Virus record (IMG/VR): IMGVR_UViG_3300035698_021428 | From: a virus | Reading direction: 5' to 3' (one strand) | DNA length: 49,956 nucleotides | Position numbers and translations under genes: made by a program | In this document: positions 649 to 42,720 of the stretch, one piece after another | Numbering within the stretch: position 1 is the first letter of the stretch | Layout: each line of letters starts with the position of its first letter | The notes under the pieces: model-generated | Seen by the model: only the letters and a program-made list of their open reading frames with translations | Told to the model about the DNA's origin: nothing | Database searches by the model: none

Positions 649-1803
649 ATGACAACACCTAATTGGACAGAAGACGTTAGAGCAAAAGGTAACACAAAAA
701 TTACCTGGGCCAATCATCTTTGCGATGACGAGCAAGCGAACGTTGTCGGTCGCGTCGTTTTTGTTCGATCATTCGGTTCGTTGACCTTCATCGTTATCCG
801 CGATGCGGCAGATAGTATACAGATTGGACTGAAGGGCAAGATTGCTCCGCCGCCGATGTGGAGCATTATCTCCGTTCATGGCGTAACTGGTAAGACCAAG
901 AAGGGCGAGCATACTGTTTGGACAGAGAAGTTTGAGTTGCTTGCTGAATGCAACGGAAATATGCCTGACAAGTTTCATGGCATCGAAAATGCTGAATACA
1001 TTTACAACAATAGGCCAGCGCATCTTATCGCTAATCCTGATCATTCTCATAATCTAATGATGCGTAGCCGAATTATTCGGGAGCTTCGTAGACGGCTTGA
1101 AGATGTTCATGCCTTTATGGAAGTCGAAACTCCCTTATTGAACGATGAACCTACAGGTGCCAATGCTAAGCCGTTCATAACTCATCATAATGCAGAGAGC
1201 GAAGACAAGTACCTGAGAATTGCTCTTGAGGTTCCGCTGAAGAAAGCTATCATTGCAGGTTTTCCTAATGTTTTTGAAATCGGTCGTGTATTCAGGAATG
1301 AAGGCGTTGACCGAACTCACCGCCCTGAGTTTACGATGGTTGAGATGTATTCATCTCCTGGTACGCTACAGAACATGAAGGATCTGTTCATTGACCTTGT
1401 ATCTCATTTGCGTGGAGAGTATATCAAGATTCCGACCTATGAGTATGACGACCTTGTAGCTGAACATGGCGAAGATTTTGATGAGCATATGCAGGAACTT
1501 TGCTTCGTCGCTGGTCAGCCTCTTGAACAGACACCGCTTTGCAAGGCTCGTGCTGATGGAAAGGCTGATAGGTTCGAGATCTTCGGTAGAGGCTTCGAGA
1601 TCGCCAACGCTTTTCAGGAGGTTCATACCGCCGAGGAACAGAGAGAGCGTCTTAGCGGCCAAACAGAAGGCTCTGATGACGGCTTGATTGGCGCTCTTGA
1701 GTACGGAATGGCTCCAACAGGCGGAATGGGTATCGGTATTGACCGATTGGTTATGTACCTGCTTGAAATAAACAATGTAAGAGACGTAATTCTTTTTCCA
1801 TAA
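649..1803 (+). CDS. lysS: lysyl-tRNA synthetase-like class II aminoacyl-tRNA synthetase, compact (384 aa)
   Basis: N-terminal OB-fold-like segment (VVGRVVFVRSFGSLTFIVIRD). Motif 2 'FEIGRVFRNEGVDRTHRPEFTMVEMY' is LysRS-type (FRNEG / H.PEFT). Motif 3 is 'GGMGIGIDRLVMYL'. About 120 aa shorter than bacterial LysS. Confidence 0.8.
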   Translation: MTTPNWTEDVRAKGNTKITWANHLCDDEQANVVGRVVFVRSFGSLTFIVIRDAADSIQIGLKGKIAPPPMWSIISVHGVTGKTKKGEHTVWTEKFELLAECNGNMPDKFHGIENAEYIYNNRPAHLIANPDHSHNLMMRSRIIRELRRRLEDVHAFMEVETPLLNDEPTGANAKPFITHHNAESEDKYLRIALEVPLKKAIIAGFPNVFEIGRVFRNEGVDRTHRPEFTMVEMYSSPGTLQNMKDLFIDLVSHLRGEYIKIPTYEYDDLVAEHGEDFDEHMQELCFVAGQPLEQTPLCKARADGKADRFEIFGRGFEIANAFQEVHTAEEQRERLSGQTEGSDDGLIGALEYGMAPTGGMGIGIDRLVMYLLEINNVRDVILFP

Positions 1804-6679: not shown

Positions 6680-6762
6680 GCTGATGTGAGCCGAATTGGT
6701 AAGGCAGCACTCTTGTAAAGTGCCGAGGAAACTCACTGCAGGTTCGAGTCCTGTCATCAGCT
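6680..6762 (+). tRNA. long-variable-arm (class II-like) tRNA; hand-read anticodon UGU (6714-6716)
   Basis: Perfect acceptor gctgatg/catcagc. Leu/Tyr-like D loop gaattggtaa. Anticodon arm gcact-ctTGTaa-agtgc. The 14-nt variable arm has stem gag/ctc and a GAAA loop. T arm gcagg-ttcgagt-cctgt. Confidence 0.6.
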
Positions 6763-7452: not shown

Positions 7453-7553
7453 GTCTGCGTAGCTCAACGATAGAGCGCCCAACCTGCGATACAGTGTGCC
7501 CTTGGGAGACTGTCAGCTATGGGATGTTGCTGGTTCGAATCCAGTCGCAGACT
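7453..7553 (+). tRNA. tRNA-like gene (101 nt) with normal acceptor, D and T arms but a ~46-nt irregular anticodon region; anticodon not assignable by eye
   Basis: Acceptor gtctgcg/cgcagac. Arg-like D arm gtagctcaacgatagagc. T arm gctgg-ttcgaat-ccagt. Between them, cccaa...(a/t)tggg encloses the hairpin acagt-gtgcccttgggag-actgt. Confidence 0.5.
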
Positions 7554-11158: not shown

Positions 11159-11241
11159 GGTGGCTATGGCAGATTGGTAATGCACCTGGTTGTGGACCAG
11201 GAACCGTAAGGTTTATGCGGGTTCAAATCCCGTTAGTCACC
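11159..11241 (+). tRNA. tRNA-His (GUG) with encoded G-1 and an unusual 15-nt variable arm
   Basis: 5' g-gtggcta resembles E. coli tRNA-His GGUGGCUA. Anticodon arm cctgg-ttGTGga-ccagg. Variable arm aacc-gtaa-ggtt-tat. T arm gcggg-ttcaaat-cccgt. C73. Confidence 0.7.
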
Positions 11242-11249
11242 CTTTAGTT

Positions 11250-15585: not shown

Positions 15586-16215
15586 ATGTCTGAGCAAAAA
15601 AACGTATTGCCTAATAGCGACTGCAAAACCGGCGAAGCCAGTGCAATTAGGGATAAACACCCTTGCGAAGTTCCTCGTGATTATGTCTGTTCCATTTGCG
15701 ATCACAAAGGATCACTACATAGCGTTGGCATGATTCTTGAACGAGGCGATGACAGGGAAGACGGTGAAGACCAATACGCCTGCCCTAAATGCTTCTGGGA
15801 GCGAACCCCAATAGGAAAACACACGCCAGAGCCCTGGCATTGGCACATGGAAGATAGATCCACGATGTTTATTTCGGGCCTTCGTGATTACATCAAATAT
15901 CCTATTCTGAATGCAGCAAGATGCACAGCATGTCAAGATGCATGCGTTAATAATTTTCCTTGCGGATGGCCTTCTAAAGCTAATGCTGATCGTATCTGTA
16001 GTTGTGTCAACGCATGTACAGGTATTAAAGATCCTGAAAAAACAATAATTGAACTAAAGAGCGCCTTGCAAGATACTCTAGTGTTTGTAGGCAAAATAAT
16101 GAAAAATAAAAGGGATGCCGACCCAAACTATGATGAGTTCAATAACAAAGAATCAGAGATTTATGATAAACTTCACAGCGCTAGCCTGGCACTTAATAGT
16201 AAATATGGATGGTAG
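15586..16215 (+). CDS. Cys-rich hypothetical protein (209 aa)
   Basis: AGGGAG RBS plus ATG 15586. Multiple CxxC pairs. Confidence 0.55.
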   Translation: MSEQKNVLPNSDCKTGEASAIRDKHPCEVPRDYVCSICDHKGSLHSVGMILERGDDREDGEDQYACPKCFWERTPIGKHTPEPWHWHMEDRSTMFISGLRDYIKYPILNAARCTACQDACVNNFPCGWPSKANADRICSCVNACTGIKDPEKTIIELKSALQDTLVFVGKIMKNKRDADPNYDEFNNKESEIYDKLHSASLALNSKYGW

Positions 16216-16544
16216 AAGAAATTCAACAAGAAATTGACAAACTCCAACCGTTGTTTCGGGTTCTTGTCGAGTGGGATATAGTTGCTATCGTTGATAAGGA
16301 TTATCAATGCGAAGTTCATATCAACGAGAAAGAACGCAAAGCTTGTATCCTTCCTTGCTGTTGGGAAGGCTCAAAACCGAATGATTATGTATTTCATGAG
16401 CTAATGCATCTTTGTTGTCGAGAAATTAGTTTGGGAGAATATTCCGAACGGCGGGAAAAAGAAGAAATATTTGTTCAAGACTTAAGTAAGTTATTTAGAA
16501 GTTTTTTGGATCAATCCAACTATGAAGATTTATTGCGACATTGA
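16209..16544 (+). CDS. small protein with HExxH motif (HELMH), possible minimal metallopeptidase (111 aa)
   Basis: ORF track. 'YVFHELMHLCC'. Confidence 0.45.
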   Translation: MVEEIQQEIDKLQPLFRVLVEWDIVAIVDKDYQCEVHINEKERKACILPCCWEGSKPNDYVFHELMHLCCREISLGEYSERREKEEIFVQDLSKLFRSFLDQSNYEDLLRH

Positions 16545-16853
16545 CGGAACGCTTACAGACGAGCGATTCAAAACCTGGGGCAATCCTGTTATGCCTCGAA
16601 TAGACAAGCTAAAACAATTAATCAAAGATGGTAATCAGGTTGTTCTTTGGTCAGGGGAGGAACTAATTATGCTCGTAAATTTGCCAAGAAATATGGAATC
16701 AAAACTATTGCGGCTATAGGAAAACCAGATGTTGTTATTGATGACAACCCTAAGCTTCGTCCTGCAAAAAGAACAAAGTATCTATCTCCTGAACAATTTG
16801 AATCGCAAGATATTGATTCAGGACAGAAATGGTTAGATGTTTTGGGGGTTTGA
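16522..16853 (+). CDS. HAD-superfamily hydrolase/phosphatase split by a -1 frameshift at a G4 run (16654-16657); possible pseudogene or sequencing error
   Basis: Frame A carries 'MKIYCDIDGTLTD...NQVVLWSG' (HAD motif I DxDGT). Frame B carries 'GGTNYARKFAKKYGIKTIAAIGKPDVVIDDN'. One extra G would join them. Confidence 0.65.
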
Positions 16854-18578: not shown

Positions 18579-19538
18579 ATGACCGATCTGGTGACGTTTT
18601 CAAACTTTTTCATGATTTCTGGTTTTCTTTTGGCGGCTTATTCTGTAGTAGCCAACGATAGCGTTCAAACGCTTGGAACATTTATGGCCTCCAATAGCCA
18701 TAGGCGATGGTGGGTTCTTTGGTTGTCAGCGTCAGCAGTTCTTGTTGCTACGCTATTATTTAGCTGGTTTGTATATGATGGAGACATAAGTCAGGGGAGA
18801 TTAGACAGCATTCCATATGACGGCAATTTTCAATGGTACCATGCAGTAGCGCCTCTGATTCTTGTTTTCATGACTAGATTTGGGATACCTGTTTCTACAA
18901 CTTTTTTGGTTATCAGCGTATTTGCTAGTTCAGTTGTAATCGAAAAGGTTATATTAAAATCTGTGATGGGATATGGAGTTGCGGCGATAACGGCATATAC
19001 TCTATGGACAGTTTTGAGCAGATTCTTAGACGAACATGATAAAGTCGATCCCAAGAACCGCAATAGATGGTTTATAGCTCAATGGCTAACCACTGGCTTT
19101 TTGTGGTCTACCTGGTTGAGTCATGATATGGCAAACATCGCTGTCTACATGCCTCGGCAACTAAGCTTTCCATTGCTTCTAGTCGTCTTTGTTGTTCTTA
19201 TTAGCGGTTTGGCTATGACCTTCAAGCTTCGAGGCGGCAGGATCCAGAAAATCGTTCTCGACAAAACAGGCACTCGATATGCTAGAAGCGCGACCATTAT
19301 CGATTTCGTCTTTGCATGCATTCTCTTAGTTTTCAAAGAATGGTCCACGATACCAATGTCAACGACCTGGGTCTTCGTTGGTCTGCTTTGCGGTCGAGAA
19401 TTAGCGATTCATGCATCAGTAAAATTCGAGAGTACGAAAGCCGTATTCCCCATTATTGCCAAAGATTTTGCCAAGGTTCTTGTTGGGCTTGGCGTATCGC
19501 TAGTTCTTGTATGGATCATTCAAGGGACAAAAATATAG
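18579..19538 (+). CDS. polytopic membrane protein (319 aa), tentatively PiT/PHO4-like transporter
   Basis: About 9 hydrophobic segments. 'VVANDSVQTLGTF' and 'SHDMANIAVY' weakly resemble the duplicated GANDVAN signature of PiT phosphate transporters. Confidence 0.6.
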   Translation: MTDLVTFSNFFMISGFLLAAYSVVANDSVQTLGTFMASNSHRRWWVLWLSASAVLVATLLFSWFVYDGDISQGRLDSIPYDGNFQWYHAVAPLILVFMTRFGIPVSTTFLVISVFASSVVIEKVILKSVMGYGVAAITAYTLWTVLSRFLDEHDKVDPKNRNRWFIAQWLTTGFLWSTWLSHDMANIAVYMPRQLSFPLLLVVFVVLISGLAMTFKLRGGRIQKIVLDKTGTRYARSATIIDFVFACILLVFKEWSTIPMSTTWVFVGLLCGRELAIHASVKFESTKAVFPIIAKDFAKVLVGLGVSLVLVWIIQGTKI

Positions 19539-19636
19539 AAAGAGTAGAACAGTTGTTCATATTGCATATCTTGTAGAAGGAAAGAAAACGTTTCTTCGAG
19601 TAATAGAATGTATTGGTTCTAGTACAGGAGAACGCT

Positions 19637-19945
19637 ATGCCACAGTGTGTCAAATTCCCAAGTCAAGAAGGCAGGGCAACGGTACTTCCAGGAAATTTTG
19701 AAGTATACCTAAGTCTTGACGGCAAAAATGCTTGGATGGAATATATTCGTAATGCCTCTCAATGGGGAGCCTGGCGTCAGGCTGAACAAAAACTCTATTC
19801 GGTTCAGTTAGAGCAAAGCGGCAACGCTGAAGATTTATCAAGTAAGTTCCTTGCTCGCGAAACGCCATTTCGTAGAGCAGAAGAAGACATGTTTGATCTT
19901 GCTGCTCTTTGGGTCTCAGAAGGCCCTATTGAAGTTAAGCCATAA
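19637..19945 (+). CDS. hypothetical protein (102 aa)
   Basis: GGAGAA RBS plus ATG 19637. Confidence 0.5.
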   Translation: MPQCVKFPSQEGRATVLPGNFEVYLSLDGKNAWMEYIRNASQWGAWRQAEQKLYSVQLEQSGNAEDLSSKFLARETPFRRAEEDMFDLAALWVSEGPIEVKP

Positions 19946-19966
19946 TTCAAATCAAATCAAATGACA

Positions 19967-19998
19967 ACGCCGTTCTTTTCGTGAGGACGGCGTTTTCT
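19967..19998 (+). terminator. rho-independent terminator
   Basis: Stem aacgccgt/acggcgtt, then TTTT. Confidence 0.75.
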
Positions 19999-20069
19999 AT
20001 ACCCGAAGGCTTTTACCTTGTTTTGGTCGAAGAACTTGTAGAGTCATTTTATAAAATCTGGTAAAATAT

Positions 20070-21881
20070 ATGATTATTGAACGTCAGTTTGAAAGCGCAT
20101 TTTATCATGCTCCCATTGGATTCGCTATCGTCTCTTTCGAAGGATTGTTTTTACGAGTCAATAAGGCTCTCGAAGATCTTCTTGGCTACTCAGAAGAAGA
20201 ACTACTACGAATAACTTTCTATGACATAACTCATCCTGATGAACAAATACTCGGTAGGGAATGTATCGCAGAACTTATGAGCGGCGAGAAAGATTTTTGC
20301 CAGTTCGAAAAACGGTACATCCACAAAAACGGTCAATCAATATGGTGCCTGCTCAACACTTCCGTTGTTCGCAACGAGCGGAATGAACCTGTACATCTAG
20401 TTTCTCAAATACTAAACATACACGAGAAAAAAGAAGTTGATCTAAAACTACATAGAGAAAAACAACAGACTCAAAAAATACTTGATGCTATGGACTCTTT
20501 TATCTGGCATAAAGATACCAATAACAATATTCTTAGAACCAATAAAAAGGTAGCAGACAGTCTTGGCCTTAGAAGATCTGATATTGAAGGTCATTGTTCA
20601 ACTGAGTTTTACCCTATGGAATCGAAAAAACCGATATTTGGAATAACAGAACCAGTCTCTACCAAGAATGGCAAGAAATGGGTTTCAACTGACAAGATTC
20701 CAATGTTTGATGATGATGGAGAAGTTACAGGCATACTCGTTGTTTCAACTGATATAACCGAGATTAAACAACAAGAGCAAAAGCTTGAAGAGTATAGCAG
20801 TAGGCTTGAGGTTGCTCTCGATGCTGGCAATATAGGTATTTGGATATGGTATCCTAAAGAAAATCGTCTTGAATGGGATGATCGGATGTTCGATCTTTAT
20901 GGTAGAAAGAAAGATGATTTCAACGGAACTGTTGAAGACTGGTCTCGTTCTTTGGTTGAAGAAGACAGAGACAATGCCTGTGATAACATAGATCAATCGT
21001 TAGAGAAGGGCGTCCCGTTTATTAGCGAGTTTAGAATTCTAAAAAACGGAGAAATTCGGCACATTACAGCTTATGCGCTTCTTGAGTTAGATGACGAAGG
21101 CGAAATTGAAAGCATGATTGGCGCAAATTACGACATAACCGATATGAAGCGGACTGAGGCCAATCTAAGGAGATCCAATGAGGATCTTGAAAGGTTCGCC
21201 TATGCTGCGTCGCACGACCTTAGAGAGCCTCTTAGAACGATCAAGGGTTTTGCTGACCTGTTAGATTCTAAGTACAGCGACGGTTTTGATGAGACTGCTG
21301 AAAAGTACATGGCCTTCATAAAGCAAGGTTGTCTAAAAATGGAAACCCTCATTAACAGCCTGCTTGCTTATTCCAGAGTTGACAGAGATATGGAGTCTGA
21401 CGAAGTAGATGTCGATATGAATGCCACTGTCAGGACAGTATGCGAATCTTTGATGGCAAAAATAGCAGAGAATGATGCAGACATAGAATGGGATAAAAAT
21501 TTACCAGTAATACAGTCAAATTCTAATCTGATGTTTCAGCTATTGCTAAATCTTATAGGCAATGCGGTGAAGTTTAAAAGCGAAGACAGACGATGCAAGG
21601 TATGTATTACTTGCGAAAACTATGATACTGATGACGAGTTTTTAAAGTTTTGTGTCAGAGATAATGGTATAGGTATCGAGGAAAAATTCCAAGATCGTAT
21701 ATTTGAAATCTTTCAACGATTACATGACAGGTCTATGGAAGGGACAGGCGTTGGTTTGGCTCTTTGCAAGAAAATAGTAGAGAATTTTAATGGAAAGATA
21801 TGGGTGGAATCTGAGTATGGAAAAGGATCGTTATTCTGTTTTACACTCCCTAGGGGAAAGACTATCAATAAGAATAACTAA
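20070..21881 (+). CDS. cytoplasmic multi-PAS sensor histidine kinase (603 aa)
   Basis: Three PAS-like repeats. H-box 'FAYAASHDLREPLRTIKGF'. N box 'LLLNLIGNAVKF'. G1 'VRDNGIGIE'. G2 'GTGVGLALCKKIV'. No TM segment. Confidence 0.9.
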   Translation: MIIERQFESAFYHAPIGFAIVSFEGLFLRVNKALEDLLGYSEEELLRITFYDITHPDEQILGRECIAELMSGEKDFCQFEKRYIHKNGQSIWCLLNTSVVRNERNEPVHLVSQILNIHEKKEVDLKLHREKQQTQKILDAMDSFIWHKDTNNNILRTNKKVADSLGLRRSDIEGHCSTEFYPMESKKPIFGITEPVSTKNGKKWVSTDKIPMFDDDGEVTGILVVSTDITEIKQQEQKLEEYSSRLEVALDAGNIGIWIWYPKENRLEWDDRMFDLYGRKKDDFNGTVEDWSRSLVEEDRDNACDNIDQSLEKGVPFISEFRILKNGEIRHITAYALLELDDEGEIESMIGANYDITDMKRTEANLRRSNEDLERFAYAASHDLREPLRTIKGFADLLDSKYSDGFDETAEKYMAFIKQGCLKMETLINSLLAYSRVDRDMESDEVDVDMNATVRTVCESLMAKIAENDADIEWDKNLPVIQSNSNLMFQLLLNLIGNAVKFKSEDRRCKVCITCENYDTDDEFLKFCVRDNGIGIEEKFQDRIFEIFQRLHDRSMEGTGVGLALCKKIVENFNGKIWVESEYGKGSLFCFTLPRGKTINKNN

Positions 21882-23436: not shown

Positions 23437-26127
23437 ATGCAAGACAATGATTCCGGCGCAATCCGAGGATCATCAGGCGATCTTTTGATCCCTGAAGGTT
23501 CATATGCTCATTTTTAAGGACTAACAACTGGCGCAATTTCGACCAAGGTTGGGCCTGCAAGCGTTTCGCAATCGGGGCAAGAACGTCCTGTTGCGTTCGA
23601 TCCAGCAAGGCGACAATTCATTGAAGTTAGCCGAGAAAGTTCGGTCAAACTCAATGTTATCGCTGATGAAACCAGTTATGTTATTCTTTCAAATCCGTGC
23701 ATTGCAGTCGCAGACGGCGATGACCAGCTTATTTTTCCAGGATCTTCGGACAAGATTCCCAATCAAGGTCTAGAGAGCGGTCGAAAAGTTGTGGTTCATG
23801 GACCTGTCGAATTTTCGCTTTGGCCTGGACAGACTGCAGAAGTTGTCCCGGGTCATGCTCTTCGCTCAAATGAATATCTTGAACTTGTTGTTTATGATGC
23901 TGATGAAGCAAAAGCCAACTGGGAATCAGCCTCCGTTGTTGAGACCAAGAAAACTGGCGGCGATAAAGAAGATAAAGATGATACGCAGGTTACGTCTACT
24001 GCCCCTGCTGATCTTCTTATGGGACAACGATTGGTTGTCAAGGGAACTGAGGTTTCATTCTATCGTCCTCCAACTGGTATACAGGTTGTTCAGAACGAAG
24101 ACAATATCTTTATTCGACAAGCTGTTTCCCTTGAATTACTTGAATACTGTATTCTTATCGACGAAAATGGCAACAAAAGGTATGAGAAGGGACCAGCAGT
24201 TGTTCTTCCTCGTCCATCTGAACGATTTGAAAAAAGCTCTAGAGGCAATAGAAAATTTAGAGCCATTGAGCTTCAAGACCAGGCAGGCGTTCATATCAAA
24301 GCGCTCAAGACCTACCAGGATGACGACGGAAAAGATCGCAAAGCTGGTGATGAATTCTTCTTGACGGGCAAAGATCGTCCTATCTACTACCCTCGCGAAG
24401 AAGAAGCCGTTATTCCTTATAGCGATGGCGAAAAGATTCACTTCGCTGTTGCGGTTCCCAAGGGGGAAGGCCGCTACGTTATGAATAAGACCACCGGTGA
24501 GATCGCAACGATCATCGGCCCCAAGATGCTTCTTTGCGATCCGACTAATGAAGTCATCGTTCGTCGCATCCTTACTGACAGACAAAGTAATGATTGGTAT
24601 CCTGGTAATGATAACTCTAGGCAATACAATCGCAATCTTCGAGAGATTCAGGAAGCTGCAGGAACGGCTGGTGATTTTGTTGACGATACATCAACACGGC
24701 AGGCAGCAACCAGGGGGCTTCATTCGCTGCGAGAAAAAGGCAATCCAAGAGTAGGCGGAGCTTCGTTCTCAAGTATGTCCGCTTCCGCCGGATCGGAACG
24801 AGGTTTTGAAAGCTTCGAACAAGCTGGTTCAGCAATGATGGGAGAACTAGATCGGCCATCAAGCTATACAGAACCCAAAAGCATTACTCTTGATACACGT
24901 TTTGCAGGAGTTCCTGGTATTGAGCTTTGGACAGGCTACACCGTTATGGTCGTTGACAGAGAAGGAAACCGCCGAATCGTCAGCGGTCCAACCAATATTC
25001 TGCTCAATTATGACGAGTCATTAGAAATCATAGAACTTTCTACCGGCAAACCAAAATCAACAAAAGGATTGATTCGCACAGTATATCTTCGCAGAGATAA
25101 TAATAAGGTTTCCGATTATGTTGAAGTTGAGACAAAAGACCATGTGAAAGTACAAGTAAAACTGTCATTCCTGGTCAATTTTGTTGAAGACAATCCTAAT
25201 GACGATCAGGATGATACCGATTATCAAGAGCGTTGGTTTGCTAGCGAAAACTATGTCAAGCTTCTTTGCGATCATGTTCGCTCGATTCTTAAGGGCGAAG
25301 CTAAAAAGCACGATATCAATAACTTTTATATCAACTCAACATCTATCATCAGAGATATCATTCTTGGTAATCGTCAGGAAGATGGCAGAACAGGTATGTT
25401 CTTTGAACATAATGGTATGCATGTTATCGATGTTGAGGTTCTTGGAACAGAAATTCTTGATCACAGCATTGCTTCGCTACTTACTGGCTCTCAGCGAGAA
25501 GCAGTTGAATCAAGTATTCGTCTTCAGTCTGCCGAAAGAACGCTTAATGTAACTGAGCAAATGGAAGCGATGTCTCGTAAAGAAGCAGTTGCTAAGAATG
25601 AGACCAAGAAGCACGCACACGATCTAACGATAGAAAGCATTGGAAGAACTCTGAAGGAGTCCCTAGCAGACATATCTTCAGAACAAGACAAGTCCGTTCA
25701 TAGGCTTACTGCTCGTACTGCCGAAGCTGAAGCTACTAAAATGGCAAACGTTATTGAGGCCGAAGCTGCGGTCGCAGGAAGCGAGATTGAGCGAGAAGAT
25801 CAGAAACTCGATCATGAACAGAAAATCTTAGAAGCAGAAGAAATAGCTAGGCTTGACAAGGAAGCGATTGAAACCGAAGTCAAGGCCACAGTTGATAAGC
25901 TCAAGGCCCTTGAAGGTTCGGGGTTGACCGACGTTCTTGCTACGCTTGGTCGAGAAGACTTCTTGACCCGTATAGCTGAATCCAGCAATCTTGAACGATT
26001 GATTGGCGGAGCTAGCGTCCAAGATACTTTGACCGGAATTTTCGGCGTTGAGTCGCCTATTGCTAAGGCGTTCGTTGCTATCAAGGCAGGAAAGCCGCTT
26101 GCTCAATCTTTGCTCAATAGCGACTAG
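23437..26127 (+). CDS. major vault protein (MVP) homolog: vault repeats, SPFH-like shoulder and cap-helix (~896 codons) with one in-frame TAA at 23515-23517
   Basis: GGAGA RBS plus ATG 23437. 'LLIPEGSYAHF*GLTTGAISTKVGP..ERPVAF' vs human MVP '[25 protein letters not shown]..ERVLF'. 'GDEFFLTGKDRPIYYPREEEAVI' vs '[21 protein letters not shown]'. 'YVMNKTTGEIATIIGPKMLL' vs '[20 protein letters not shown]'. E/A/K-rich C-terminal helix. The track ORF 23791 starts at an internal GTG. Confidence 0.8.
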
Positions 26128-26302: not shown

Positions 26303-26655
26303 GGGGGCGATATGGAATCGCTTCAGTAGGGTAGGAAGGATTGTTGCGAGCCGGGGAACCATGCTTAGGCCCCGTAAAAAAGTATGGAATAATTAGTTGC
26401 CAACAGCAACCCACTCCGCATCGCTGCTTGACAGCGGTGCCTGCAAGTCCTGAACGCCGATACGGGATACGCAGAAGATTTTCGGCTGGTCGTCTGAACA
26501 ACTGTTTCAACCAACAGACGATGAGATAAAGGATGAGACCGCTCCCTGTCGCAGACTGTCGCTGGTCGGCTAGGGGCTAAGATAAAACATCGACTACGCT
26601 CGTAGAAACGCCCAACAAACTACTGAACACGGCGGTTCGAATCCGCCCGCCTCCA
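26303..26655 (+). ncRNA. ssrA: tmRNA (SsrA), tag ANSNPLRIAA
   Basis: 5' GGGGGCGAUAUGGAAUCGC.. pairs with 3' ..GGCGGUUCGAAUCCGCCCGCCUCCA (G3:U70, T arm). The tag ORF GCC AAC AGC AAC CCA CTC CGC ATC GCT GCT TGA lies at 26399-26431. Confidence 0.85.
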
Positions 26656-26664
26656 TTTAGAAAG

Positions 26665-28564: not shown

Positions 28565-28831
28565 TATATTACTTCCTGTAAGTTACAGAAGCCTAGCTGA
28601 ATACCGCCTCGAATAGGGGTTGTAGACAGTTTTTATTGGCGTGGAATAGTAGGTAGATGCCTTTTGGCTCGCCGATACATCTGAATCACTAGTAATAGCT
28701 AGCTTATTTTCAATATGGCTAGCAGGTGAATCAAATTCGACTAAACTTGTCGAACCATGAATCGTCGAACAGGGCTTGCGGCGGAGCCGCTGTTCGTATA
28801 CAAACCGACGCCGCAACAGGAGTGCGAAAGC

Positions 28832-30064
28832 ATGCGACTCAATAAGCTCAGTACGAGCATGACAATCATTGGAATGCTGTCTGCTGCATCTGCCTTTGCG
28901 CAGGATGGTGCCCAGGTCACGAATAGCGAGGACCATCAACGTATGATGTCATCTGAAATAATGAATGACGCAGTATCCCGCAGCGGTACACAATCTGGTC
29001 ATAATGGAAACGGATTCTTTTTCTCAGATCCCGATAGAGACTTCACCCTTAACATCGATGGACAGCTTCAGTTTCGCTACTATGCGAACTTTACTGACAT
29101 GGGAAAAACGGACACAACAACTGGTTTTGAGACGGCTCGAACAAAATTGAGATTTAGCGGCGATGTCAACACCTTCGATTATACAGTTGAAGGTGTTTTT
29201 GCTCCGTCAGGCGGCGGGTTTATGCTGCAAGACGCATTCTTCGGTCACTCTCTAGGTAGCAATGCCAACGTTCAGGTTGGTCAGTTTACGCTACCATTCA
29301 TGCGAGAACAGAACGTTGACAGTAGATATCAGCTTGCTGTTGAACGATCAGTTACCGATGCCGTATTTAATCAGGGCAGAGGCCAGGGTTTGCAGTTGAC
29401 GTTTACTCCTGTGGATATGGATAATGTTCGCTTTACAGCGGCATTCAGCGATGGGTTTAGCACGGCTAACACAGCGTACACATCTTCAATGGAAGCTGAT
29501 TACGCAATTACTGGTCGTTTAGATTGGCTCGCCGCAGGCGAATGGTCTCAGTTCGACGACTTTACTTCTCAACAAGATGAAGATTTTGGTTTCCTTGTAG
29601 GCCTTGCTGGTCACCTGCAGGAAGGCGGCGAAACTGGCGGAACTATGGACACTAAAATGTTCAGTTATACTGCAGATGCTAGCGTTGAGAATGGAGGGTT
29701 CAGTGCCTTTGTTTCAGGCGTTACTCGTTCTACCGAAACTACGGCAACTGAGTTCGATGATTTCGGGCTGGTCGCTCAAAGCGGTTTTAGGGTTACTGAA
29801 AAAGATGAACTATTCGCTCGATGGGATGCTGTCTACGCTGATAGCGATCGTGGTCTTACGAATGATGAGTTCAACTATCTGACCGCTGGCTACAATAGGT
29901 ATCTTGCTGGACACTCAGCTAAGTTCACAGCCGATGTTGTTTATGCTGTTGATGATACTGCTGGTATCGGAAGTCTGACCTCATCCCTTGGCGGACTTGG
30001 AATAATGAGCAGCATGGAAAGCGAAGATGTAGCCTTACGAGTACAGCTACAGCTTCTTTTCTGA
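28832..30064 (+). CDS. outer-membrane beta-barrel porin (porin O/P-like), 410 aa
   Basis: Signal peptide 'MRLNKLSTSMTIIGMLSAASAFA|QDG'. Alternating beta-strand pattern 'FTLNIDGQLQFRYYANF'. C-terminal '...LRVQLQLLF' with terminal Phe. Confidence 0.75.
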   Translation: MRLNKLSTSMTIIGMLSAASAFAQDGAQVTNSEDHQRMMSSEIMNDAVSRSGTQSGHNGNGFFFSDPDRDFTLNIDGQLQFRYYANFTDMGKTDTTTGFETARTKLRFSGDVNTFDYTVEGVFAPSGGGFMLQDAFFGHSLGSNANVQVGQFTLPFMREQNVDSRYQLAVERSVTDAVFNQGRGQGLQLTFTPVDMDNVRFTAAFSDGFSTANTAYTSSMEADYAITGRLDWLAAGEWSQFDDFTSQQDEDFGFLVGLAGHLQEGGETGGTMDTKMFSYTADASVENGGFSAFVSGVTRSTETTATEFDDFGLVAQSGFRVTEKDELFARWDAVYADSDRGLTNDEFNYLTAGYNRYLAGHSAKFTADVVYAVDDTAGIGSLTSSLGGLGIMSSMESEDVALRVQLQLLF

Positions 30065-31079: not shown

Positions 31080-32729
31080 ATGGCAACCAAACTTGGAAAA
31101 GGCGAGTATCCCAGCGATCATTCGCCAGAAGACTTTAAATGCTTTGGCCCTCCTGCTCAGGAAGACGGTCAGTTTGACGGCATGATGATGGCTGACATGG
31201 GCTGCTTCAAGCAAGATGGTACAGATTCCAACAAATTCTACCATGGCGCAGTTGTTCAATCCAAAAAAGATGATAGCTGGTATGCCTACTATGAATGGGG
31301 CAGAACTGGGAAAGGTTCTTCTGATAAGCAATTCGTTTGTTGTTCGTCGAAAGAAGAAGCTGAACAAGTATTCTGCAAGCAGATGCACTCCAAAAATGAC
31401 AAGCGAGGCGAATGGGTCAAGATAGGCAGTAAAGACATTCTAAGAGCGAAGACAGGCAAAGACTGCTACCTTATCCGTCCGCTCGCAAAGCGATCTCATG
31501 GCCTTCCAGACGCTCAGACAATCGTCCATGACGATAGCGGCAAAGCTGGCAGCGCCGTCGCTAAGAAAACAACCAAAAAGACCGGAAAGAAAACCAGCAA
31601 AAAGATTGCTAAGAAAAAATCAAACGTTGATCCAAAGACTCTTAGTCTTATGAAGGATATGAACGTTGCAGCGGTTGAATTTACTCGCTCGCAGGTTGAT
31701 AGCGATGCAGTCCCAACTCAAGGCGTTATCGATGAAGGCAGAGATGTTCTTATCGAAGCGGAAAAAAGAGTTAAGAAAATTGGATCAAAGCTTGAAGAAC
31801 AAATTAGCGATAGAGACCTTCGAGATCTAACGTATCATCTCTATTCTCGAATCGGGAAGCCAAAGCCTCTCAATACGCTTGAATCTGCCTGGATTCTTTC
31901 TCAAGACAACATCATGCGTTGGCGAATGGACCTTGATACATTTGAGCAGGCATTATATGCTCTTGACCTAGGCATTGGCAGCGATACTCAGAATACCTTT
32001 GATCCGTTCAATGGCATGAATATTGAGATGATTCATCTCGACCCGACTAAAACGGCTGAAGGTCAATTTATTCACAATTGGATGCCTGGCGCAACGAAAA
32101 ACGTCCACGGGCACGTTGGCGACATGAGTATTGTCAACGCATGGGGCGTTCGTCAAACTGATTTTGCACCAAAATTTGAAGCAACTGCTGCAAAGATTGG
32201 TAATCGCAATTTCACCCCATCTGACAAACCTATCAAGCAGCCCCGAAAACGATCTGATATCTCGCCAGAAATGGCTAAACTATTCGATCAAGCAAATGTC
32301 AATCTCTTATTCCATGGAACAAGATCTGTCAATGTTCCTGGCATTCTTCGCACAGGGCTAAGGCTCCCCAGAGAGCTTGTTGGAGTTGTCCTTACTGGCG
32401 CAATGTTTGGACCCGGTATCTATTGGGCCGATGATTGGAAAAAATCAGACGGTTACACTTCTCGACCAGGAACTTATTGGTCAAGAGGCGGGGGACAGGT
32501 CAAAGGTCGCAAGGCTTTTATGTTTGTTGCCAATGTTGCTCTTGGCAATCCTCATATTGCTCGCGGTCCTCAAGGATATACTGCTCCGCCGAAAGGTTGC
32601 GATTGTGTTGCAGGTCTTGCTAATAAGAGCAGCGTAGCCAACAACGAATGGATTGTTTACGACAGTATGCAAAATTCTCTTACATATCTTATTGAATACG
32701 AAGTTTCAGGCAGCAGCCGTCGCTGGTAA
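31080..32729 (+). CDS. poly(ADP-ribose) polymerase-like protein: WGR, Lys-rich linker, helical regulatory domain and PARP catalytic domain (549 aa)
   Basis: WGR 'FYHGAVVQSKKDDSWYAYYEWGRTGKG'. Linker 'AKKTTKKTGKKTSKKIAKKKS'. Catalytic H-Y-E triad: 'LLFHGTRSVNVPGIL', 'FGPGIYWADDW' and 'NNEWIVYDSMQNSLTYLIEYEV' (PARP1: '[22 protein letters not shown]'). Confidence 0.9.
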   Translation: MATKLGKGEYPSDHSPEDFKCFGPPAQEDGQFDGMMMADMGCFKQDGTDSNKFYHGAVVQSKKDDSWYAYYEWGRTGKGSSDKQFVCCSSKEEAEQVFCKQMHSKNDKRGEWVKIGSKDILRAKTGKDCYLIRPLAKRSHGLPDAQTIVHDDSGKAGSAVAKKTTKKTGKKTSKKIAKKKSNVDPKTLSLMKDMNVAAVEFTRSQVDSDAVPTQGVIDEGRDVLIEAEKRVKKIGSKLEEQISDRDLRDLTYHLYSRIGKPKPLNTLESAWILSQDNIMRWRMDLDTFEQALYALDLGIGSDTQNTFDPFNGMNIEMIHLDPTKTAEGQFIHNWMPGATKNVHGHVGDMSIVNAWGVRQTDFAPKFEATAAKIGNRNFTPSDKPIKQPRKRSDISPEMAKLFDQANVNLLFHGTRSVNVPGILRTGLRLPRELVGVVLTGAMFGPGIYWADDWKKSDGYTSRPGTYWSRGGGQVKGRKAFMFVANVALGNPHIARGPQGYTAPPKGCDCVAGLANKSSVANNEWIVYDSMQNSLTYLIEYEVSGSSRRW

Positions 32730-35513: not shown

Positions 35514-38157
35514 ATGAGTATTCCACAAAATGCAGATCTTTCCATAGTATCTCAAGCTGAAGCCGATCGCCACAAGATGGTTACAGATAATAATGAAGTT
35601 GGAGGAACAAGGGCATTTGTTTCAAATCCTGATTCAAATTTCTCATTTTCTCATCCGAAGGTTCTTCAGCTTGGAAATACCACATCAAATAAAGACGCTG
35701 TTCTTGCGTATCGAATTCTAGTAGTAGAATCAGGCGGGAAAGCAAAGACCCCAGATTTTAATTGGCATTCTGGTATATTTTCTACAGGAGAAAATCTTCG
35801 GGTAACTCATAACGGATCATATTATTACCAGTTTAGAACAATGTGGGATGTTGGCACAAGCGGAAGCTTACCAGAAGGAACAAGTATTATTGAGCTTCTT
35901 GAAATGTATTCCACTGCTGAATCAGCAATTGCTTCAACGCAAAAAAATTGCTTTTTATATTCAAAAAAGCAGCGGCGTAAATCACTTAGTCTGCAAGCTT
36001 GCTGATCCTAATATAGGATACGAAGATCCCACAGAACTATTGCAAAATGGTGTTTGGTATGATATAAGAATGAAATATAAGCCAGAAACAGGAAGCTCAG
36101 CAGATGGAATTTTGCTTGTAGAACAAAAACTTGCGACAGCTAGCTCATGGACTACTTTGATAAATGTAACAAATCATACTCAGAATGCTGATATAATGTG
36201 GGTAGAATATCAGCACAAGGCCTCAAGCGGATTGTCTCCAGGCATAACATCTTCTAAAACCTGGATTGCTTCTAGTTATCAAAGATTAGATAGTTTTGAG
36301 GCTGACGATTATGAATATAATAGATTTAGAACGTCAACGTGCCTGGACGTATCTTCGTCTATAGCTAAAATTAGAGTTCACTGCGATGATGAAACAATTG
36401 ATACATCTTCTGGAGGGTTTATTGTTCAATACGGAACAAATTCGACTTTATCATCAGGTGTTATTGATTCATCCTATACAGCTTTTAGCGCTAGAACCCA
36501 TGACTGCGCTACCGTATCTCTAACTTCATTATCTGCTGATACAAGATATTATTACAGGTTAAAATTTCAAGATGACGAAAGTTCTCCTACCGATACTTAT
36601 ACTGTGCCAGAAATACGGTCATTCAAAACTCTAGCAACTACTACTGGCGGAACTCGAAAAATACTAATTGGAGGATGTAAGGGGCACGCAGGATGGAGAG
36701 GCGGCAATGCTGCTTTCGATCACTTAATAGCTGCTGAAGGCACTCCTGACATGATAATATTCAATGGAGACATGATATATGATACAGACCTAACGCAATT
36801 GGGTTCAGGAAATAGCGACTATGAACTATGGGACTTAACTGAGGATAATTATTCATCAGCTTATAGACTTTCATTTGGAGAATATGATTTCGCAAAAATA
36901 CTTTCTGAATGCGCTTTCTTTGGGATGTGCGAAGATCATGAATTCTTTAATTCATGTGATGGTAATATGCGAGGGCAAGCAGTCAATATGGGATTAGCAG
37001 TTGATAATGCTGGAACAGCATATCCTACTTCTCATATGAATACAACATATCTAAACGGAGGCGGCGCGCCAGTTACAGCCGATGGTATATTCACCATAGC
37101 CACTGATGTTATGGCGTCATGGTGGGGAAACGGAACAATAAACGCAGCCGACTCTGGTTCAGGACGAGATTATTATCGTTCGTTTGAGCATGGTAATGTA
37201 TTAGTTCTTATGTTAGATACCAGAACACGAAGCACTGCAACTAGCCTAATTACATCAGCACAAGAGACATGGATTCAAACAACTATAGCAGCTTCGGACG
37301 CCAAATATATTGTTATTAGTAGCCCCGCTTCATGGGGAGATTATCTTATCAATATAAGTCCAGCCGAGGCATGGGGAAGCAATGCAAATCTCAGAGCGCA
37401 ACGTGCTAGTATATTTAACTGGATAAAAAACAATGCTTCTGATAAAGTAGTTTATCTTATAGGCGGAGATAGGCATACTCCTTATGTTGCGTATCCTAGC
37501 GATTTAACCGGACCAGATGGTCCTCTCAAAAGAATTGCAATGGCATCGCCATTTAACCAAGATAACAATTTCAACACAAGCGCTATTACCGCAATGGCAT
37601 CTGACCCATCAGTCGTATCAGTTATAAGTACCGATGATTATACTGGCTTATCAATGGTCAGAACTTCTGGTTTATTAGTAGAAATTGACGAAGCAACGGA
37701 TACCGTTCGATTAGTTATGTATGATGATAATGGAAATAAATTGATAGATGAAAGCGACTCCTATGCATTATCAACCGAAACCAGTAATGAAATATCAAGG
37801 GCCATATCTATAACAACGGCTCCTACGCACATACCTTCTCCGACCTTTTCTCTAGCAGGAACAAGCTATGCAACAAGATTTATTGATCCGAACATAGAAG
37901 CTATGATAACAAAGCAAAATCTAAATGCGCCTGTTAGCGTTTCCTTTGAATCAGTAACTAATGATTATGAAATCCGCTATACCACAAATAGCAATAGAAA
38001 TCCAACAAGCAAGAGTATTCTATATTCTGGTCCTTTGAGCATAAGTAGAAACTTGACTGGCGTTGATAATACTGTTGTTAAAGCCAGGATATTCCACAAA
38101 AATAATCCTGGAATTCATAGCCGTATAACTAAGTTAGAATTCAACGTAATTATGTGA
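35514..38157 (+). CDS. LamG-like plus PhoD-like metallophosphatase (alkaline phosphatase D family) fusion, ~880 aa, read across a +1 frameshift at an A7 run (35941-35947)
   Basis: Track ORFs 35514..36005 and 35848..38157 overlap. Removing one A gives '...AIASTQKIAFYIQKSSGVNHLVCKLAD'. PhoD_N-like 'LSADTRYYYRLKF'. Metallophosphatase motifs 'FNGDMIYD' and 'GMCEDHEFFN'. Confidence 0.7.
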
Positions 38158-42648: not shown

Positions 42649-42720
42649 GCTTCGTTAGCTCAATGGTAGAGCAATAGTTTCTAAAACTACAGGTTGTCGG
42701 TTCGAGTCCGACACGAGGCA
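42649..42720 (+). tRNA. suppressor tRNA, anticodon CUA (reads UAG); body resembles tRNA-Lys
   Basis: Acceptor gcttcgt/acgaggc. D arm gctc-aatggta-gagc. Anticodon arm atagt-ttCTAaa-actac (anticodon 42681-42683, A27-C43 mismatch). T arm gtcgg-ttcgagt-ccgac. A73. Confidence 0.75.

Follow-up and report, generated by a model that had tools for sequence, protein, structure and literature searches.

The window analysed here is a stretch of 49,956 nucleotides from the IMG/VR virus record IMGVR_UViG_3300035698_021428, which looks like part of a huge phage. It carries at positions 42649–42720 (+ strand) a tRNA gene with the anticodon CUA, an amber suppressor by type, and about 5.5 kb downstream of it lies a gene resembling peptidyl-tRNA hydrolase 2 (PTH2-like gene, 48233–48622, +) that is interrupted by two in-frame TAG codons. 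The explanation that we favour, and consider likely, is that the tRNA is a functional suppressor enabling expression of the PTH2-like gene with its in-frame UAGs, in a phage lineage that uses UAG as a stop codon. Comparison with relatives indicates that the tRNA is real and conserved. We infer that it is expressed, charged with an amino acid and decodes the UAGs of the PTH2-like gene, and the enzyme would in turn handle peptidyl- or aminoacyl-tRNA arising from suppression.

The tRNA at 42649–42720, called type a below, is detected by ARAGORN as a 72-nt tRNA on the + strand with the anticodon cta at position 33, and the Rfam model RF00005 scores it at 68.6 bits (gathering score 29), the top tRNA score in the window. 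Folded alone, it adopts the cloverleaf as its minimum free energy structure (−23.1 kcal/mol, z = −3.05), and 0 of 200 shuffled sequences were equally stable. Read from the sequence, the acceptor stem GCUUCGU/ACGAGGC has 7 bp with a wobble pair U3–G70. The D arm (GCUC-AAUGGUA-GAGC) is canonical with G18G19 present, the anticodon stem-loop AUAGU-UUCUAAA-ACUAC contains an A27–C43 mismatch, the variable loop has 5 nt and the T arm reads GUCGG-UUCGAGU-CCGAC (T-loop TTCGAGT). The discriminator base is A73 and CCA is not encoded. More specifically, the loop UUCUAAA has the features of the phage suppressors known as Sup-CTA: CUA at positions 34–36 of a 7-nt loop, U33 and a purine at position 37. The first-pass annotation of this DNA, made from the letters alone, had described a canonical 72-nt cloverleaf with the loop uuCUAaa and called it an amber suppressor; ARAGORN, the Rfam score and the predicted fold bear this out, and the conservation described below supports a genuine tRNA of the amber-suppressor type. 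ARAGORN gives the tRNA the label 'Pyl' because of the anticodon CUA alone. tRNA-Pyl has a short D loop without G18G19, a 3-nt variable loop, a 6-bp anticodon stem and PylS as its partner. The D loop with GG, the 5-nt variable loop and the 5-bp anticodon stem rule this label out, and when ten proteins were compared with NCBIfam, PylS-related signal was limited to a class II core match of 19 bits within a LysRS-like protein. No ribozyme or other structured RNA was found flanking either of the two suppressor tRNAs of the window, and promoter and terminator scans around them gave only background level.

The second CUA tRNA, type b, which is absent from the first-pass annotation, lies at 45505–45577 (+), has G73 as discriminator and is detected by both ARAGORN and Rfam (63.9 bits). 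Relatives of the window were reached through homologs of a SpoU/TrmL-like gene at 42988–43659 (in what follows contigs and loci carry L numbers and proteins P numbers). The syntenic relatives are a 47 kb contig with 80% identity, an 83 kb contig with 67% and contigs of about 500 kb with 61–63%; the latter include the IMG/VR viral genomes IMGVR_UViG_3300020429_000529 (498 kb) and _000539 (488 kb). All of them are environmental contigs (IMG/VR, JGI, TARA, ENA, Logan), and the group consists of marine phages of about 500 kb. Orthologs of type a are present at the syntenic position in L023, L026/27/30, L029 and L040, and orthologs of type b in L026/27/28/30, L029 and L040, with similar tRNAs in L035 and L037. 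In the relatives type a is placed upstream of the methylase gene and type b beside a gene for an HD-domain protein. The anticodon CUA is invariant in the 5 type-a and 6 type-b sequences compared, while compensatory double changes have occurred in 12 of 21 stem pairs of type a and 14 of 21 of type b, an amount that, in these alignments, exceeds chance by far. Among the five type-a sequences G1:C72, (C/U)2:G71, (C/U)3:G70 and A73 are conserved and the rest of the acceptor varies; type-b sequences all keep G73. L023 has the doubly TAG-interrupted PTH2-like gene and only a type-a tRNA within 10 kb, for which reason type a alone may suffice for such a gene.

The same data bear on the idea that the CUA tRNA does not decode at all and is a decoy or replacement against anticodon nucleases of the host, an integration target or what is left of a sense tRNA in decay. 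In favour of this idea, phages are reported to encode tRNAs whose altered anticodon loops escape defences directed at tRNA. However, CUA has stayed invariant while the stems covary, two independent CUA tRNAs are kept per genome, conserved in-frame TAG targets adjoin the tRNAs and the cloverleaf is fully canonical, so that a non-decoding role is hardly credible.

The PTH2-like gene came to light when the window and its relatives were compared all against all with TAG tolerated, and it occupies a stretch that standard-code gene calling had left empty. It has 129 codons and ends with TAA (48620–48622, +); a Shine–Dalgarno (SD) sequence AAGGAG (48221–48226, +) is located 6 nt before its ATG. The first in-frame TAG, the 'amber leader', is codon 5 (48245–48247, +) after M-G-F-T, encoded by ATG-GGA-TTC-ACA, and the second is codon 47 (48371–48373, +) in the loop that joins helix 1 to strand 2. 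Both are conserved in seven distinct sequences, namely the window, the L026 type, L029, L023, L040, L110 and L111, and the flanking proteins of contigs with the doubly interrupted gene are 60–80% identical. All six orthologs with upstream sequence have AAGGAG or a close variant of it (AAGGAGG in L026, GAAGGAG in L029). From the first TAG up to the conserved RRD in the core of the domain, no ATG, GTG or TTG occurs. Nucleotide differences rank third > first > second codon position, in the same frame on either side of the second TAG, which is separated by 1 or 2 residues from EHPHL, in a loop of variable length. Judged by their conservation and by this pattern of substitution, both in-frame TAGs are genuine parts of a reading frame held under coding constraint.

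According to profile comparison and structure prediction, the product is a divergent PTH2 homolog with the Pth2 fold. The Pfam model PTH2 (PF01981, cut-off 23) gives 20.1 bits for the window protein and 21.4 bits for that of L026, with a match that crosses the second TAG, and a profile of the family matches the Pth2 structures 2zv3_A (E=1.3e-6) and 24bt_A (E=7.7e-6) in the PDB. The AlphaFold2 model of the TAG-less homolog P0123 has a predicted local confidence (pLDDT) of 81 and a predicted template-modelling score (pTM) of 0.71; in a Foldseek search with this model the top 12 PDB matches were all Pth2/Bit1, with template-modelling (TM) scores of 0.58–0.67. The conserved FREPD motif aligns with the RDAGH segment of 2zv3, E replacing D. 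The second TAG aligns with residue K31 of P0123, which is part of a surface loop. An alignment of this TAG with a conserved Trp of distant homologs was withdrawn: the Trp is one column downstream and the TAG column is variable.

Linkage of PTH2-like genes, in-frame TAGs and CUA tRNAs extends beyond this phage, as seen in three samples that were anchored differently, on the SpoU gene, on the CUA tRNA pattern and on a PTH2-like protein motif in IMG/VR. A suppressor tRNA is present in 9 of 10 SpoU-anchored loci with a PTH2-like gene and in 4 of 68 without one (Fisher p = 3.7e-8, a statistic that, like the other co-occurrence figures, ignores phylogeny). When loci were selected by the CUA tRNA, 5 of 22 had a PTH2-like gene, within about 0.8 kb of the tRNA; these 22 metagenome loci are mostly short (many of 1–2 kb), and their CUA tRNAs are unrelated ones with a generic D arm in common. 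Among 72 distinct PTH2-like homologs from IMG/VR, 50 have a CUA tRNA within 3 kb. In 47 of the 72 an amber leader, that is Met, 0–7 further residues (most often one) and TAG, stands right before strand 1 of the domain, while control leaders with TGA and TAA number 4 and 1. The nucleotide directly after the leader TAG is a purine in 46 of the 47. A TAG inside the domain is found in 7 of the 72 homologs. Homologs that are TAG-less or singly gated lie about 10–300 nt from a CUA tRNA, on the same strand, in L098, L082, L077, L089 and L112. The CUA tRNAs associated with PTH2-like genes, of which there are 56, are heterogeneous in discriminator base and acceptor stem. From these co-occurrences we conclude that gene and tRNA are linked, and the combination of a suppressor tRNA with an amber-gated PTH2-like enzyme looks like a general module in large phages. 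Most of the associated CUA tRNAs are 70–77 nt long; those of L146 (3666–3758), L168 (3778–3871) and L194 (3305–3396) have 92–94 nt and may contain a long variable arm or an intron. L061 has a PTH2-like gene without an amber leader (18972–20144, − strand) near an ochre (UUA) suppressor tRNA (at 15760), and in L199 and L201 PTH2-like genes, again without an amber leader, have opal (UCA) suppressor tRNAs in their vicinity. Other stop codons may have such a module too; leaders with in-frame TAA or TGA were rare, as stated above.

The early TAG could also be left undecoded. ATG, 1–5 codons and TAG would then form a minigene, the enzyme would be made by reinitiation or from an internal start, and the tRNA would be there by coincidence or in another role. 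Very short open reading frames (ORFs) do exist, as in the lambda bar minigenes, whose toxicity is linked to Pth; moreover, in 5 of the 47 leaders a start codon follows the TAG, and L112 has a GTG in strand 1 that its gene caller used as start. But no ATG, GTG or TTG is available between TAG and domain in the other 42, the leader is always in frame and specific for TAG, it is physically linked in a strong way to CUA tRNAs specifically, and the clade of the window has a further TAG within the fold itself, after helix 1 and before strand 2. A minigene is therefore very unlikely to be the explanation.

Several observations weigh against a suppressor dedicated to a PTH2-like enzyme. Besides the disregard of phylogeny in the co-occurrence statistics, an SD-like motif is obvious in only 17 of the 47 leaders. 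No CUA tRNA is found within 3 kb of 12 of the 51 TAG-containing homologs, and 11 homologs with a nearby CUA tRNA carry no TAG. For the 12 homologs the tRNA may be located beyond 3 kb, as it is in this window. Because the window protein stays under the Pfam cut-off for PTH2 and has an altered catalytic motif, FREPD for DAGxT, its substrate may be something other than peptidyl-tRNA. Finally, no structural or lysis genes were seen in the approximately 60–70 kb examined of a genome type of about 500 kb, and for this reason late genes may be recoded more broadly.

This last point leads to UAG usage. In the window 12 of 58 gene calls (21%) end in TAG, among them a DUF3228 gene, whose Pfam match spans the profile up to the stop, and the gene for a vault-protein homolog of 778 aa. 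ORF coverage of the window is 0.857 with the standard code and 0.940, 0.955 and 0.956 when TAG, TGA and TAA, respectively, are read as sense, i.e. TAG gives the smallest gain of the three stops; the increase in coding density that marks recoding is not seen in the window. Reading TAG as sense restored no long ORFs in the window, the sequence after TAG-terminated genes, where read-through would extend them, scored as non-coding, and back-up stops are not enriched behind these genes. TAG-ended genes make up 2 of 29, 7 of 31, 6 of 33 and 3 of 22 (7–23%) in relatives. In an extra 10 kb of the 498 kb relative (L115) both long TAG-spanning ORFs are split at ordinary TAG stops, one into a membrane protein followed by a Clp_N protein and the other into a phosphoribosyl pyrophosphate (PRPP) synthetase followed by a membrane protein; the Clp_N protein and the PRPP synthetase end in TAG. 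The PTH2-like gene is the one TAG-interrupted gene found in about 60–70 kb of this lineage. ORF 46136–46828 was considered as a second one and rejected: it consists of a Cys-rich zinc-ribbon-like protein (46166–46378, +), absent from the standard ORF list and with a conserved TAG stop shared by the window and L023, and then a separate gene. As far as gene calls tell, TAG is not visibly reassigned in the window, and since UAG is an ordinary stop for about one-fifth of the genes examined, the suppressors do not act here on a visibly recoded genome. One more TAG was noticed in a HAD-like phosphatase (16486–16853, +) whose coding sequence is divided between two reading frames that overlap: frame A, up to 16716, has the DxDxT motif and ends at TAG, and frame B (16647–16853) has the K...DD motifs. 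This is either a frameshift, programmed or decayed, or a sequencing error.

UAG usage bears on the most serious alternative, a stage-specific switch of the genetic code similar to code 15, in which the suppressors serve late structural and lysis genes elsewhere in the genome, the window is the part compatible with the standard code and the PTH2-like gene is one recoded gene of many. Sup-CTA phages with recoded late genes are a precedent for it (PMC10879173, PMC11210395, PMC13037316); in addition, the structural module was seen in none of the sequences examined, and the pipelines for the short contigs L110 and L111 wrote TAG as Q, consistent with code 15. However, the share of genes ended by TAG in the window and its relatives would be unusual if TAG were reassigned, the coding density of the window argues in the same direction, and in the source annotation of the 83 kb and about 500 kb relatives the gated gene is either missing or broken into pieces, consistent with code 11. 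Only a single TAG-interrupted gene is present in the approximately 60–70 kb, and a TAG at codons 2–8 is too stereotyped over 47 divergent genes, with domain TAGs in only 7 of 72, to be expected from general recoding. We regard a code switch as rather improbable, because TAG is a common terminator throughout the approximately 60–70 kb examined of this lineage and the position of the leader is too stereotyped for general recoding.

The first-pass annotation had also proposed that the suppressor has a body like tRNA-Lys, one change of the anticodon away, and may insert Lys. Along this line, a suppressor derived from tRNA-Lys (CUU to CUA) would be charged with Lys, possibly by a phage LysRS, and UAG would mean Lys. 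A73 is the discriminator recognised by LysRS, and in the suppressor studies of Normanly and Abelson LysRS reportedly depends for the most part on U35 and is prone to mischarging CUA tRNAs in E. coli. Among 17 E. coli tRNAs, tRNA-Lys is nominally the most similar to the window tRNA (Lys 71%, Met 69% and Thr 67% identity), the CUA tRNAs of L082, L089 and L098, loci with a PTH2-like gene, classify best as Lys, and the window contains a LysRS-like gene. The resemblance is not kept among the orthologs: the nearest E. coli tRNAs of the four type-a orthologs are Thr, Trp/Arg, Arg and Arg, and the acceptor sequence UCGU/ACGA, which had been read as Lys-like, differs in every ortholog. By identity to 263 phage tRNAs Lys is outside the top six isotypes for the window tRNA, and a naive-Bayes classifier on Sprinzl positions, which has a leave-one-out accuracy of 70%, places Lys outside its top four classes. 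Isotype assignment from overall identity, classifier or E. coli comparison was dropped, since the three approaches give results that are inconsistent from ortholog to ortholog and hence uninformative. The conserved pairs 2:71 and 3:70 are mostly C:G, whereas tRNA-Lys of the phage panel usually has G:C there. A73 is indeed present in all 5 type-a orthologs, but it is not specific for Lys: it is the prevailing base in about 11 of the isotypes in the phage tRNA panel and is also present in this phage's own tRNA-Gln(UUG) (ends read by eye). tRNA-Lys has the anticodon UUU or CUU, and here the anticodon is CUA.

Regarding the LysRS gene named by the first-pass annotation, a short class II LysRS-like gene is indeed located at 649–1803 (+), but without linkage to the tRNA. 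Its product matches the NCBIfam LysRS models below their cut-offs: it has 384 aa (model about 490), the score for TIGR00499 is 314.5 bits against a cut-off of 427.6, the match comes in two stretches and the OB anticodon-binding domain is weakly detected. The gene is 41 kb from the type-a tRNA. It belongs to a clade of short phage LysRS (P0157–P0170) of 366–405 aa, about 100 residues short of cellular LysRS, with 46–80% mutual identity and 35–40% identity to cellular LysRS. In L113 and L114 the LysRS context has no other genes in common with the window and no tRNAs nearby, and by its distribution this clade is mobile. Taken together, a Lys-charged suppressor derived from tRNA-Lys appears unlikely.

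The residues at the TAG positions do not decide in favour of Lys either. An attempt to read the amino acid from the columns of the TAGs inside the domain (7 homologs) failed, as the four columns are variable and mostly polar: TAG-less homologs mostly have E, S, T, D, Q, Y and N there, and K makes up a minority in two columns and does not rank among the eight most frequent residues in the remaining two. The public records P0121 (L110, 180–563) and P0122 (L111, 15–362) show Gln at each of the two TAG positions, which was considered as proof that UAG means Gln and rejected: the DNA has TAG, and the records are not evidence because the source pipelines wrote Q for TAG, apparently under code 15. 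Thus, the part of the first-pass prediction that stands is insertion of an amino acid at UAG, for which the PTH2-like gene with its in-frame TAGs is a conserved target; Lys as the inserted residue is not supported, as nothing that we found favours it. Gln is a candidate by precedent, and Lys, Glu and others are candidates as well.

If the tRNA does act as a suppressor of the PTH2-like gene, the following sequence of events can be proposed. Without charged tRNA(CUA) the ribosome would halt after four residues of the PTH2-like gene, and with it the full-length enzyme would be produced; as there are two UAGs, output would scale approximately with suppression efficiency squared. As release factors are inefficient when the nascent chain is very short, the early UAG would be a sensitive read-out of suppressor availability, and the enzyme would therefore be made only when suppression operates. 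Its role may be to recycle peptidyl-tRNAs that result from competition at UAG and from read-through into 3′ ends. Alternatively, the enzyme could hydrolyse species borne by the suppressor itself, which would be a negative feedback. The window encodes a transfer-messenger RNA (tmRNA) at 26303–26658 (+), with the tag ANSNPLRIAA (ARAGORN, Rfam 129.6 bits), which would fit recycling and is possibly a functional partner in ribosome rescue. In 3 of the 22 tRNA-selected loci (L015, L019 and L020) a tmRNA lies about 40 nt to 2.3 kb from the CUA tRNA, which hints at a wider tie between suppressors and ribosome rescue. We tentatively suggest an 'amber circuit', in which the suppressor(s) and the UAG-gated hydrolase act as sensor and actuator, or as feedback, on stop-codon read-through, a proposal that we hold to be somewhat less probable than its opposite.

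The lineage described here, which still terminates many genes at UAG, bears on the question of how and when phage suppressors take over UAG decoding. Suppressors are coupled to one enzyme family whose reading frame begins with a UAG gate, not only in this phage but also in dozens of large phage contigs unrelated to it. This gives a concrete handle on the regulation of stop-codon suppression and suggests that, besides recoding of whole genomes, there is suppression of a partial or conditional kind. If an amber circuit operates, it may supply a control element hitherto missing from phage code switching, or represent an evolutionary stage between the standard code and code 15. There are consequences for annotation as well: standard-code callers systematically truncate or miss the gated gene, and code-15 callers put Q at the TAGs of short contigs without evidence for Gln. 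The natural pairs of tRNA and leader are of possible interest to genetic-code expansion.

Other contents of the window are described here in brief. No match at the DNA level was found between the window and GenBank phages (megablast, INPHARED). Besides the two CUA tRNAs and the tmRNA there are eleven sense tRNA genes, ten called by ARAGORN and one by Rfam only; the latter is a 101-nt match (7453–7553, 46.9 bits) that may contain an insert or intron. tRNA-Arg(CCU) of 88 nt (2026–2113) and tRNA-Thr(UGU) and tRNA-His of 83 nt each (6680–6762 and 11160–11242) have, unusually for such isotypes, an additional hairpin in their variable region. The window has many small ORFs without assigned function, nearly all of them on one strand, and also encodes a SpoT-like HD domain and a radical SAM protein. 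The SpoU/TrmL-like tRNA ribose 2′-O-methyltransferase gene (42988–43659, +) starts 268 nt downstream of the type-a tRNA, and its product scores 57.8 bits with the Pfam model SpoU_methylase (cut-off 29.7). Members of this family are common among huge phages, where they often adjoin tRNA arrays, and as they are present regardless of a nearby CUA tRNA, the gene is probably a general phage tRNA-modification gene. The vault-protein homolog mentioned above is a major vault protein homolog (23791–26127, +) with an MVP_shoulder match of 88 bits and Vault repeat domains, and its gene ends with the tandem stop TAG TAA. A protein with a PARP catalytic domain and WGR is encoded at 31080–32729 (+), and in L023 (2933–4516) and L026 (399–2042) its gene is located just upstream of the suppressor region. 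A PAS-PAS-HisKA-HATPase sensor kinase (20070–21881, +), a weak match to phosphate-selective porin O/P (28757–30064, +) and a PhoD phosphatase (35848–38157) suggest a phosphate-related set of auxiliary genes. No clade-specific repeated 12-mer was found in the window and its relatives.

Finally, we compare the tRNA and its partner gene with known systems. Recoded gut and jumbo phages are known to encode suppressor tRNAs (PMC10879173, PMC11210395, PMC13037316). With the code-15 phages (crAss-like, Lak and gut phages) the phage described here has in common a CUA tRNA among a tRNA array, a tmRNA and an aminoacyl-tRNA synthetase, a region compatible with the standard code, and at least one phage gene that contains TAG in frame. 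In contrast to them, TAG is a frequent genuine stop here, and coding density in the window does not show the increase of at least 5–10% by which code 15 is recognised (PMC10879173). The only interrupted gene is PTH2-like with TAGs at stereotyped positions, and not structural or lytic; there are two classes of suppressor per genome with different discriminators. Theta ribozymes adjoin suppressor tRNAs in some phages (PMC10879173), whereas no theta- or HDV-like ribozyme flanks the tRNAs here, and the relatives are environmental contigs, whereas the cited studies concern gut phages.

PTH2 genes have been described in jumbo phages, with a proposed role in ribosome rescue (Iyer et al. 2021, PMC7824862). 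The gene reported here likewise encodes a small protein, with the predicted Pth2 fold, in large phages, and both its profile and the model match Pth2/Bit1. It differs in belonging to a divergent subfamily, with FREPD for DAGxT and a window protein below the Pfam cut-off, and neither an amber leader nor linkage to a CUA tRNA is mentioned in PMC7824862. We found no paper on linkage of PTH2 and suppressor tRNA or on an amber leader in the full-text literature available, which is incomplete, so that an earlier description is possible.

There is also a likeness to E. coli supE and supF hosts with phage amber mutants, in which a suppressor tRNA is needed to express a gene interrupted by UAG in frame and other UAG-ended genes tolerate partial read-through. 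A purine after UAG favours suppression, and this context, too, is common to both systems, being found in nearly all leaders here. The difference is that the present system is natural, conserved over very divergent phages and couples the suppressor with one enzyme family. As to the methylase, E. coli TrmL is the ribose 2′-O-methyltransferase for C34/U34 of tRNA-Leu; the neighbour of the type-a tRNA is of the same SpoU family, JGI calls its homologs TrmL, and the suppressor offers C34 and the loop context A36-A37-A38. The phage protein differs from TrmL in its length of about 220 aa with an N-terminal extension. In conclusion, the suppressor tRNA itself is of a known kind; new are its standard-code context and its amber-gated PTH2-like partner.

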